A DNA stretch of 35,376 nt, from IMG/VR virus record IMGVR_UViG_2703718783_000008. One strand, 5' to 3'. Numbering within the stretch: the stretch's first letter is position 1; each line of letters opens with the position of its first letter. The stretch is from a virus (Duplodnaviria > Heunggongvirae > Uroviricota > Caudoviricetes). Position numbers: made by a program. Shown one piece after another: positions 6,001-9,000 of this stretch.

Positions 6001-9000
6001 ATGGTTGAATTAATCATCAATACTCTCCTTTTGGTTTGAAGGTTTATTGTTCATTTCCGGTCCTTAACTTTGCTGTATCGTTCATGGCTCATTACTTCCC
6101 AGTTCTGGCCGCCGTCTCGGGACAGCAGCCGCCAGCGGCGATTAACCCTCAGACTCAGGTTTCCGGAGCCGTGCATACGACAGGGATGAATTCGTCTGGC
6201 TCTGAACTGGCGGAGAACACGGACCGCCTGCAGGTGCACCCACTCAGGAATTCGTATTGCTGTTAATGTCACCGATTTCCTCCAGATCAGGAGCGATTAC
6301 CTGATATCCCGCTTTCTTTGCTATCCATAAGAAGGTATCCATGCTGGCAATCATCTCGTTATTGTGAACTTTACGGGTATTTATTACCTGACCATTTTCA
6401 ATCGTCATAATGATCTGTACTTTTTCGTGTATAAGAGGGGATAAATCAGACATCAGTTAATTCCTCCACTGATATATTTCTCTTTTACGTAGTCAACAAC
6501 CTCTTTTAAAAGGCCGTCCACTATCAGTTTCCCTGATTCAGTGAGATATTCCGTGTGTTGATTAATACCGATGGCATTCTGGTATGCGGTACGGATTGTT
6601 GCTTCTCCTTTCGTCCGTCCATATTCAACACGGGTAAGACCCTCAAATCGTAATAACAACTGGTTCATGAACTGTTCAGTTATTTCTATCGTTGTTATTT
6701 CTCCGTCCGGGAGGTCAACGACGAGCAGATTACTACCTGTTTTACGTTGCATCCGCCGGAGTGCCGCTGTTACCATGCGGCGACGATCTTTATAAATGGT
6801 TGTACATGCCATTTGTTATTTCCCGTATGCTTTTCTGAGAAACAGTATTGCAACTGACCAGTATCCTGCATTAGCCATTAATAATGCGGTTTTATAAGCG
6901 TTTCTATTTTTCATGCATCACCATTATTTTCTGGTTGTGGAAATCCACGACCAGAGGCCGTCATGTTTTTATGTGTGATTTTTTACTGAGTGTTCTTTAT
7001 TCGTTGCGTAGTGTTTCTATATACTCGTAAGCCATTTCACAGGTCTTATTCATGGAGCGAATGAGACAGCATAAATAATCGTCTGTCTCTCCTTGGTCGG
7101 GCGAATTCTTAAATATAAATTCAAGCATTGATGTATTCTCTTTTATTTGTGCCGCCACTTCCTCAAGAATATTTAATGGAGTTATCATGTTCTTTGCTCC
7201 TTAAATGCATCGCATGCGCTTCTGGCGTATTGTTGTGCCAGTAAAAAGATATCATCCGAAAGTTCATCACATTCTTCATCACCGGAAGCCGAAATGATTA
7301 ACCCCGCTTCAAGCAGTACGGCAATGTGATGAAAAGCTGTCTCCGGTTCGTTGGTAAGGCCTTTGAACATTTTCATCTTATGCTTCCTCCTGATTTTGTT
7401 TATAAGCATCAGTCAATAACAACATTGGATCACAGCCAAGAACATTAGCCAGAGGGATAAGCATGCTGATGGTTGGTTCGTACTCTCCGCTTTCCCACTG
7501 GATGATAATTTCTTCATCGAGATCGAGCAGCCTGGCGAGTTCGGCGGTTGTTAAGCCGCAGGCTTCGCGTTGGGTGCGGATTTTATTTGGTTGTTTGTTG
7601 ATTATGTGATTATGTAATGGATAAGTAGCAGACAGGGCGTATTCATGAACAAACTCCATGACTTCAAACCCCAATTCTTTAGAGCGATCACCATCAATTA
7701 AATGGAAAGTACGAGCAGCACCTACCAGATTTGCAATATTTAATGCAAAGGATTCTTTTTCGAAGTGGTTTAAGTTCGATATCTCAGCGGTTGTCAGATC
7801 TTTCATTGAATCACCATCAATTTAAAATTAACAATAAATCAAGTTAAAATTGATGGTGTGATGTTAGATCTTGATTGATGGAGTTGTCAAGAAAAAATTG
7901 ATTTCTGCGTCTCTTTTACTTGATTTGTAAATTTTTCTTTAATAATCAATAATTAACCAAATCTATTTATATTGAATGGAACAGATGAGATTACCTTCGA
8001 TTGGATATAAAGCAGCTCAAGAGCATCTTTTTCAATGCTCCAGGATTGGTAATTTGGGTTATCAGATAACACCATGATTTTACTTCCTATCTTTTGTAAT
8101 CTTTTGACGTAGCATTCACCATCAAAGCAAAAAGCATAAATGCCATCACCATCAAAGTAATTCACTGTTTTATCGAGAAAAAGAAGATCTCCTGGGGCTA
8201 TTGTTGGAGCCATACTATCTCCTCTTGCGTTACCAATCTCTATGTTTTGAAATGCTCTATTGCCAACAAGGCGACGGGCATATTCAGGATCAAGCTCGAT
8301 TGAGCGAACTACATCGATAAAGTCCCCACGGACATGTGTTCCATCGCCGCAACTAAACTCAACATCGAGCACGTTAAAGACCACACTGTCAGTTCTTGCT
8401 TGATGTTTTTCCTTTGAAGAGAACTGCCGTGACGTGATTTCTCCTAAAAACCACGATTGCGGATAACCACTTATTTCGGATAACTGGGCAAGCCGGTTTC
8501 CCCTTGGAAATGTTTTTCCTGTTGTCCAGTACTGTACGGACTGTGCGCTGACACCTAATTTTCGGGCCAGCTCTGCTTGGCTCCAGCCTTTCTCCTGTAG
8601 CAGCTTTGTAATTCGATTTTCAGTGCTCTTTAAGTTTTTCATTGTTAATCCTTGCTGGTTACTTGGTTTCGATAAATTTTTACTTGATTTTAGTGTATTC
8701 GATCTTTTGTGGACTTGCATGTTAATTTAAACTTGATGTAATCTTGAATTTATAAAGTTTAGATTGGTGGGTTGCGATGAAAGGAAATGATTACGACGCA
8801 CTTCGTGAGCTAATTGCACAAAATGCCATAGCGCGAAATCTAGGCGTTACGCCGCAAGCTGTGAACCAATGGTTTTCAAAAAGAACAATTCCTGCTCGTT
8901 TCGTCTTGCGTGTATGTGAAGTTGTGGAATGGAAAGTTACTCCTCATGGGTTAAGACCAGATCTTTATCCCCATCCTGAAGATGCAATTCCTGATTTGTT

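Follow-up and report, generated by a model that had tools for sequence, protein, structure and literature searches.

The stretch analysed here (the window) is the 35,376-nt Caudoviricetes record IMGVR_UViG_2703718783_000008 of IMG/VR, and the element in question is a block of small genes at positions 6051-6914, read leftwards. Bases 6100-7200 of the window are 100% identical to Escherichia phage phi467 (LN997803.1), a phage converting its host to production of Shiga toxin (Stx) 2f that is discussed in PMC7366253; the name phi467 is used below. The original prediction had placed here a translationally coupled pair of genes, with products of 119 and 69 residues, behind a structured gap of 185 bp (6813-6996), and had read the ensemble either as the phage's analogue of the lambda N protein and its nut site or as a two-component accessory module. 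The block was found to consist of four open reading frames (ORFs) arranged head to tail, separated in turn by a 3-nt gap, a 1-nt overlap and a 29-nt overlap. In the direction of transcription, the locus contains:

6915-6996, minus strand: the true intergenic spacer, 82 nt
6931-6954, minus strand: an imperfect hairpin within the spacer, with 11-nt arms at 6954-6944 and 6941-6931 (ctggtcgtgga/tccacaaccag), a UU loop and one C.A mismatch
6816-6914, minus strand: micro32, the gene of a basic 32-residue microprotein (isoelectric point, pI, 10.4; sequence MKNRNAYKTALLMANAGYWSVAILFLRKAYGK)
6453-6812, minus strand: p119, encoding 119 residues; phrog_1737, a family of unknown function (E 1.7e-51, positions 3-117 of 118)
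6244-6453, minus strand: p69, encoding an acidic protein of 69 residues (pI 4.8, charge -4); phrog_340, a family of unknown function (E 5.6e-24)
6051-6272, minus strand: a ParE/HigB-like toxin-fold gene of 73 codons; Pfam ParE_like PF24732 (E 9.9e-20, 70.8 bits against a cutoff of 24.4) and phrog_1525

The supposed gap at 6813-6996 is mostly coding, since it contains micro32; only 6915-6996 is a real spacer. The micro32 gene is unannotated in the phi467 record, and its stop codon falls 3 nt ahead of the p119 ATG. Every one of the 78 IMG/VR loci retrieved with p119 has a micro-ORF of this kind upstream of p119, and one also occurs in the loci examined from Klebsiella, Salmonella, Aeromonas phage AsXd-1, Fels-1 and phiP27. 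Its 34 distinct protein variants have the pattern A[YH][KR][TS]A...G...A..[FY]L[KR]KAYG in common, many relatives bear GAGG-type ribosome-binding sites ahead of it, and the ratio of nonsynonymous to synonymous polymorphism (pN/pS) within length classes was 0.24-0.27, with synonymous sites near saturation. Given this conservation at the protein level, the GAGG-type sites and the low pN/pS, micro32 is, as judged from its sequence, a genuine microprotein gene under purifying selection; the alignment pattern suggests a helix-Gly-helix shape for its product. Searches of Pfam, NCBIfam, PADLOC and PHROG with the family gave no informative match. Kinship with the lambda proteins Kil or CIII was considered and rejected, as the similarity was not significant (for Kil, E 0.05 in a database of six sequences, 2.4 bits). 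On the transcribed strand of the spacer no sigma-70-like promoter, terminator or boxA was detected, and the spacer itself is missing from many relatives, where the micro-ORF touches or overlaps the gene before it. In many relatives this preceding gene encodes a protein of ~128 residues with an S24 peptidase (LexA/cI C-terminal) domain alone and no helix-turn-helix (HTH) domain (for instance L172/L173, 1740-2126; L004, 3876-4265; L170, 2112-2504). It is annotated as a 'CI-like repressor' in some phages and stands in the place of the 142-, 74- and 63-residue genes of phi467.

The 119-residue ORF of the original prediction is present, and so is its N-terminal arginine-rich stretch (KDRRRMVTAALRRMQRK, residues 8-24). 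Residues R10 and R12 are invariant in 20 close relatives, in which R11, R20, R23 and K24 are nearly so, and R10 is almost invariant across 33 sequences, down to 21% identity. An AlphaFold2 model based on the 33-sequence alignment showed a compact alpha/beta fold (predicted local distance difference test, pLDDT, 91.8; predicted template-modelling score, pTM, 0.82) with the order helix 3-25, beta-hairpin, helices 46-64 and 66-80, beta-hairpin, helix 92-114; the arginine-rich stretch thus corresponds to helix 1 of the predicted globular domain. No match to p119 was found in Pfam, NCBIfam or PADLOC, a profile search of the PDB returned nothing meaningful, and a Foldseek comparison of the model with BFVD revealed no structural relative (best E 0.14, TM score 0.32); nor did the protein show any HTH or other recognisable DNA-binding fold. 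An exhaustive profile search through 1.84 billion proteins recovered 52 clusters (50% identity), which describes a narrow family with no annotated remote relatives. The conservation of the basic helix makes the binding of nucleic acid or of an acidic protein plausible. At loci that lack p69, p119 either has 117 residues, ends in ...VEARI and abuts the ParE-like gene, or is C-terminally extended and ends in ...VEAPKTEGHEMGGSDGTYSDTNS. The extended product (the 135-residue form in AsXd-1) finishes with the same residues as p69 (a ...S[DN]T[NH]S tail), and this common tail is encoded within the 29-nt overlap with the 5' end of the ParE-like gene.

The p69 start codon and the p119 stop codon have a single base in common (6453, in UGAUG). 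The pair described earlier therefore does abut, with an overlap of 1 nt and not the ATGA that had been proposed. The p69 model consists of a core beta-hairpin and helix (residues 14-47), with low confidence at the N-terminus and in the C-terminal tail; pLDDT is low over residues 55-69, and the tail is probably disordered. The core matches the C-terminal part of two antirepressor families, PHROGs 4792 (E 2.6e-5) and 2379 (E 7e-4), while relatives of p69 were found neither in Pfam, NCBIfam and PADLOC nor in the PDB and BFVD. Three p69 homologues (P0053, P0085 and P0093) carry a precomputed assignment to Pfam family PF27490, so the p69 family may already be defined, under that accession, in a more recent Pfam release. 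A further protein (P0110, from JGI, 101 residues) joins the p69 core, in the same frame, to the N-terminal half of the ParE-like protein; a natural fusion is conceivable, but a frameshift or an assembly error at the overlap is the more probable cause.

The ParE-like gene is also unannotated in phi467, while its E. coli orthologue is named 'ParE family toxin-like protein' by the annotation pipeline PGAP. By its sequence, the ORF at 6051-6272 belongs to a family of ParE/RelE type (PF24732). It starts at a GTG (6272) with GGAGG ahead of it, overlapping the 3' end of p69 by 29 nt, and this long start is supported by the conservation of the N-terminus in distant homologues. The protein is very basic (pI 11.9, charge +12). 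No literature was found under the family name ParE_like or under PF24732. The DNA at 6100-6263 is 92.7% identical to that of Aeromonas phage AsXd-1 (L004, deposited as infecting Aeromonas salmonicida), and Elizabethkingia phage EKP1 has a ParE-like protein 89% identical, together with the micro-ORF and p119; such identity across distant host labels points to very recent exchange or to doubtful labels. More distant ParE-like genes (37-51% identity) occur in unrelated phages, namely Sortsnevirus and Murrayvirus, two genera which we take to be virulent, and Serratia phage OS31. In the three distant loci examined (L177, Sortsne; L178, Serratia OS31; L179, KMB41) the start of the ParE-like gene overlaps an unrelated upstream gene each time, and in Sortsne and KMB41 the ParE-like gene directly precedes the lysis cassette. 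The upstream proteins of Sortsne (gp06) and KMB41 (120 residues) were compared with p119 as possible hidden homologues and rejected (hhalign probability <1%). Only the clade of ParE-like proteins with at least 56% identity is tied to the p119 cassette, all such matches among GenBank phages being in phages with p119.

The occurrence of the four genes was compared by tblastn of the window proteins over all fetched IMG/VR loci and GenBank phages. The order of the cassette is micro-ORF, [69-residue up69], [p119], [p69], [ParE-like], [138 residues], [p193], and it always lies between the immunity or early-regulator genes and the ORF6N antirepressor, xis and int genes. The same cassette sits in the same place in Fels-1 and in Klebsiella, Salmonella, Enterobacter and Aeromonas-labelled phages and prophages, and so in phages with differing immunity and early genes. 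Of the 78 IMG/VR loci retrieved with p119, 50 contained both p69 and the ParE-like gene and 26 neither, while the other 2 had one of the two genes (one a truncated locus); in 26 of the 78, the micro-ORF is followed by p119 with no p69. Retrieval with the ParE-like gene gave 80 IMG/VR loci, 79 of them with p119 upstream and 58 with p69. The GenBank phage records contained p119 in 20 cases, p69 in 33, the micro-ORF in 43 and the ParE-like gene in 70. The latter accompanies p119 in 17 of 20 records, while p119 and p69 occur together in just 9 (9/20 of those with p119, 9/33 of those with p69). In phiP27 and ~20 Stx1a/2a phages the micro-ORF is followed by p69 and then directly by a p193 homologue, p119 and the ParE-like gene both being lacking. 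As either of p119 and p69 can be present when the other is missing, the pairing is not obligate. Mosaic breakpoints coincide with gene borders: in one locus p119 is 99% identical and p69 68% (L002), in another p69 is 58% and the ParE-like gene 96% identical (L020), and near-identical ParE-like genes (96-99%) pair with p69 alleles only ~58-62% identical.

The block forms part of a leftward operon that begins next to the immunity region and runs as follows: the 142-residue HTH gene, the 74- and 63-residue genes, the cassette, the 193-residue gene, the ORF6N antirepressor-like gene, small genes, the integrase gene and a terminator. The features that define it are:

8777-9049, plus strand: a YdaS-type Cro; the cro homologue matches PF15943
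7953-8720, minus strand: a cI-type repressor with HTH and S24 peptidase domains
7890-7861, minus strand: a PL-like early-left promoter, sigma-70-like, with -35 TTGACA (7890-7885), 18 nt, and -10 TAACAT (7866-7861); 10/12 matches in the promoter scan
7817-7832, 7839-7854 and 7887-7902: three copies of a 16-nt pseudo-palindromic operator (ATCAA-N6/7-TTGA), from repeat and inverted-repeat analysis
7378-7806, minus strand: a 142-residue HTH protein, the first gene after the PL-like promoter
7185-7409, minus strand: a 74-residue gene overlapping the previous one by 32 nt
6997-7188, minus strand: a 63-residue gene, the upstream neighbour of the spacer; phrog_6882, a family of unknown function
5439-6020, minus strand: a 193-residue gene (p193), the next cassette member; phrog_1515, a family of unknown function
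1343-1329, minus strand: a strong intrinsic terminator after int

The PL-like promoter lies between cI and the next leftward gene, embedded in the three operator copies, and with these operators (7817-7902) it is the equivalent of PL/OL. Half-sites CTTGAT, related to the PL operators, are present between cI and cro (8724-8765). The site reported for YdaT of CP-933P is TTGATT-N6-AATCAA (PMC9986795); the phi467 half-sites resemble it but are in inverted arrangement. Rfam scans of the window, at gathering threshold and with permissive settings, returned only two tRNAs and a spurious match of the operator palindromes to a miRNA-precursor family, on both strands. The family phrog_4587 was matched both by the 74-residue protein and by residues 16-61 of the 142-residue HTH protein, so the 74-residue gene looks like a paralogue of the regulator's non-HTH domain. 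Between PL and the terminator at 1343-1329, the terminator scan of the leftward strand gave a single weak terminator-like site (4263-4245, with a poor T-run); the scan was by consensus only, Rho-dependent terminators being outside its scope. With no promoter detected in the spacer and no strong terminator intervening, the genes make up a compact polycistronic block.

The reading favoured here, with a probability of about 0.6, is that positions 6051-6914 hold four tightly packed small accessory genes (micro32, p119, p69 and the ParE-like gene) of the early-left, PL-type operon of phi467. The block would be transcribed by read-through from PL after induction or infection, and its ORFs would be translated by coupling or re-initiation, their spacing and overlaps being typical of translational coupling. 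The cassette would then supply non-essential, 'moron-like' proteins for interaction with the host, not regulators of transcription elongation. Within it, micro32 and p119 would be a separate conserved duo, the two probably acting together, which would bind protein or nucleic acid through the basic helix of p119. As for the remaining genes, we consider it possible, on a tentative footing, that the ParE-like protein is an effector kept in check by whichever acidic protein is translated immediately ahead of it (p69, or p119 at loci lacking p69), in the manner of a type II toxin-antitoxin (TA) system. As with the upstream partner of a type II toxin, p69 overlaps the ParE-like gene (by 29 nt), differs strongly from its product in pI (4.8 against 11.9) and has a C-terminus of low pLDDT. 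In the 78 loci retrieved with p119 the two genes are discordant in only 2, but 22 of the 80 loci retrieved with the ParE-like gene lack p69. A bolder version would make the micro32-p119 duo, p69 and the ParE-like gene a new multi-component TA-like or host-takeover module of temperate enterobacterial phages, in which p119 (with a previously unseen fold) or p69 neutralises a 73-residue toxin, the latter moving from phage to phage by overlapping any gene that stands upstream, and the microprotein of 32-37 residues, always linked to the cassette head, regulates; this we regard as distinctly speculative.

Several observations weigh against this reading, most of them bearing on its TA-like part. The p119 and p69 families have no relative in Pfam, NCBIfam, PADLOC, the PDB or BFVD, and in p69 no ribbon-helix-helix (RHH), Phd, HTH or AbrB DNA-binding fold was detectable, that is, no autoregulatory domain of antitoxin type. 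A search of the PDB gave no sequence-level match of the ParE-like protein to solved ParE, RelE or HigB structures, and the toxicity of PF24732 proteins is putative. The supposed partner is absent from 22 of the 80 loci retrieved with the ParE-like gene, and conversely p69 occurs without a ParE-like gene in phiP27, ~20 Stx1a/2a phages, Fels-1 and Salmonella prophages. In distant phages the ParE-like gene follows Sortsne gp06, the 120-residue KMB41 protein or, in OS31, a ParB-like protein; as these upstream genes are unrelated, the ParE-like gene has no universal partner and behaves as a promiscuous hitch-hiker. Because the tail common to p69 and the extended p119 lies within the overlap with the ParE-like gene, it may be a by-product of insertion and not a toxin-binding element. 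Finally, as the loci share ancestry, the co-occurrence counts make them look more independent than they are.

The hairpin and the N-like reading of p119 have to be considered together. The inverted repeat announced in the original prediction exists and forms, as RNA, a stable stem (-14.9 kcal/mol). The hairpin stops 16 nt short of the micro-ORF ATG and does not sequester the ribosome-binding site; lacking a U-tract behind it, it is no intrinsic terminator of the transcribed strand. The portrayal of 6813-6996 as structured was not borne out: the minimum free energy (MFE) of the region has a z-score of -1.64 relative to shuffles, which is not significant, and 11 of 200 shuffled sequences folded equally well. 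Inverted repeats of the same quality (arms of at least 11 nt with at most one mismatch) occur at 7 distinct sites in the window, with 14 nested matches as compared with ~2.4 in Markov shuffles; with seven equal sites, the hairpin is a real sequence feature and not an exceptional one. The six others are at 1223-1253, 1330-1357, 2645-2676, 14487-14516, 23799-23824 and 28316-28345, the second of which coincides with the strong terminator after int. Relatives 80-95% identical show added mismatches in the stem and no compensatory changes; the free energy of the stem there lies between -8 and -3 kcal/mol or alternative folds are preferred, and in three loci (L054, L057 and L060) the stem is lost. 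A role for the hairpin as functional RNA, for example as a site of RNase III processing or in controlling the translation of micro32 and p119, would suit the stability of the stem, its position just ahead of micro32 and the enrichment of such hairpins in the window over shuffles. Against it stand the lack of covariation, the erosion of the stem in variants, the accessible ribosome-binding site, the missing spacer wherever the micro-ORF abuts the preceding gene and the unremarkable folding of the whole region, and we hold such a role to be quite improbable; the hairpin appears peculiar to its lineage, with no role that is conserved.

A still smaller chance, close to negligible, is given to p119 as an N-type antiterminator acting through an arginine-rich motif, with the hairpin in 6813-6996 as its nut or boxB-like site. 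It has in its favour the conserved basic RRR...RR..RK near the N-terminus of p119, the hairpin upstream and the fact that no N homologue was found elsewhere in the window; like lambda N (and P22 gp24 or phi21 N), p119 is small, has an arginine-rich stretch at its N-terminal end and comes from the leftward early operon of a lambdoid phage. The resemblance ends there. Lambda N is largely disordered, whereas p119 is predicted with high confidence to be globular. No match of p119 to N or Nun families was found in Pfam (E<=1), NCBIfam (<=0.1) or PHROG (<=0.1), and BLASTP against lambda N gave only a local RRR patch that is not significant (E 0.22 in a database of six sequences). The p119 gene is the fifth ORF after the PL-like promoter and not the first. 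A nut site comprises boxA and a boxB stem-loop with a GNRA-like pentaloop. The hairpin, with its 11-bp stem and 2-nt loop, is unlike boxB and is not conserved, no boxA is present on the minus strand of 6813-6996, the transcribed one, and Rfam recognises no element there; in relatives where the cassette directly follows the preceding gene there is no conserved RNA site upstream. Room for such sites is also lacking in the places where they would be expected, as the PL leader is ~48 nt long up to the first gene and is filled by operators, which leaves no place for nutL, and the 97-residue gene starts only 12 nt past cro, which leaves none for nutR. In contrast to the lambda N/nutL system, the phi467 leftward operon has no strong terminator needing to be overridden, the only candidate before the one after int being the weak site at 4263-4245. 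Further, the cassette is shared by phages of differing immunity and early genes, and phi467 carries a Q-like late antiterminator (13569-14399). The proposal of an N/nut analogue is thus not upheld, while that of an accessory module survives in part: the genes do belong to a tightly packed accessory block, but one of four ORFs and not two, in which p119 and p69 are separable.

Two other accounts of the block compete more closely with the four-gene accessory reading. By one of them, p119, p69 and the ParE-like gene form a dedicated three-component TA or abortive-infection module of regulator or chaperone, antitoxin and toxin, like PaaR2-PaaA2-ParE2, a precedent known from the immunity region of CP-933P (PMC8630535). 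Such a module would agree with the gene order and overlaps, with the pairing of an acidic small protein, probably disordered in its tail, and a very basic protein of toxin fold, and with the tight association of this ParE-like clade with the p119 cassette. Each component, however, also occurs alone, p119 has no recognisable DNA-binding fold, ParE-like proteins 96-99% identical accompany p69 alleles only ~58-62% identical, and PADLOC recognises none of the components. In addition, the genes are located behind PL in the early lytic operon and outside the cI operon, so they may be silent in the lysogen, the state in which defence or addiction would act. We therefore judge a dedicated module of three to be unlikely. 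The other account, to which we give somewhat more credit while still doubting it, treats the four ORFs as unrelated mosaic passengers, each acting by itself on the host (on cell division, proteases, restriction or defence, for example) and packed together only through selection for compact phage operons. The genes do mix and match with breakpoints at their boundaries (as in L002 and L020), the ParE-like gene stands behind unrelated genes in other phages, and the p69 core has its matches among antirepressor families (PHROGs 4792 and 2379). What speaks against mere passengers is the constant linkage of the micro-ORF to p119 (78/78) and the near-constant joint presence or absence of p69 and the ParE-like gene in the p119 set, which suggest functional links that are at least pairwise.

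Beyond the leftward operon, the window contains the genes of the late switch and the toxin:

13569-14399, plus strand: a Q-like late antiterminator; phrog_127 (E 2.7e-98)
14514-15446, minus strand: a gene of 310 codons
15923-16882, plus strand: Shiga toxin subunit A (stx2f A); phrog_866 (E 8e-165)
16889-17158, plus strand: Shiga toxin subunit B (stx2f B); phrog_851 (E 2e-50)
17672-17744 and 17751-17822: two tRNA genes downstream of the stx2f genes

With the 310-residue gene, on the opposite strand, sitting between the Q-like gene and stx, the stx region is arranged unlike that of classical Stx phages; an atypical arrangement is also noted in PMC7366253. It appears that the early operons of this group of Stx, Fels-1 and Klebsiella prophages work without an N/nut device, which bears on how Stx2f expression is coupled to induction in a phage that has a Q-like gene and an atypical stx arrangement. 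For annotation, the result is that phi467 and many related records lack two real genes, a conserved microprotein gene and an overlapping ParE/HigB-like toxin-fold gene, and that a clearer picture emerges of a modular cassette headed by the microprotein. If the ParE-like protein were a toxin held in check by p69 or p119, this would be another TA-like module near a lambdoid immunity region, as PaaR2-PaaA2-ParE2 is, and would open a functional approach to three PHROG families of unknown function. A phage specialist would find none of these consequences surprising: the genes are ordinary accessory genes of a temperate phage, already grouped in PHROG families and annotated as hypothetical in GenBank and RefSeq.

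Among known systems, the direct homologues of the phi467 genes are STM0898.4n,.3n and.2n of Fels-1 and the members of PHROGs 1737, 340 and 1525, in the same order and place and all annotated as hypothetical. The genes kil, cIII, ral and ea10 of the lambda PL operon, which are short and non-essential (Kil has 47 residues, CIII 54), occupy the same niche of closely packed short genes between the immunity and the recombination or integration genes, and micro32 is similar in size to Kil and CIII; the phi467 cassette has no significant sequence similarity to them. With canonical type II systems such as ParDE and HigBA, phi467 has in common a small acidic protein (p69) of low-confidence C-terminus whose gene lies upstream of, and overlaps, that of a very basic protein assigned to the ParE/RelE fold; it differs in that p69 has no detectable DNA-binding fold and in that the partnership varies across genomes. 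PaaR2-PaaA2-ParE2 is a three-component TA system in the immunity region, of YdaS/YdaT type, of the cryptic lambdoid prophage CP-933P, where the TA genes are co-transcribed with the cI analogue and the first of them encodes an HTH repressor (PMC8630535). In phi467, by contrast, ~1 kb separates the block from PL, no HTH is present in p119, and the putative toxin is the 73-residue minimal ParE-like form (PF24732). Both phages have a YdaS-type Cro and a gene of the ParE superfamily behind a small partner and a third gene and, by this analogy, PaaR2-PaaA2-ParE2 is the closest precedent, in a related genomic setting, for a TA-like reading of the phi467 cassette.

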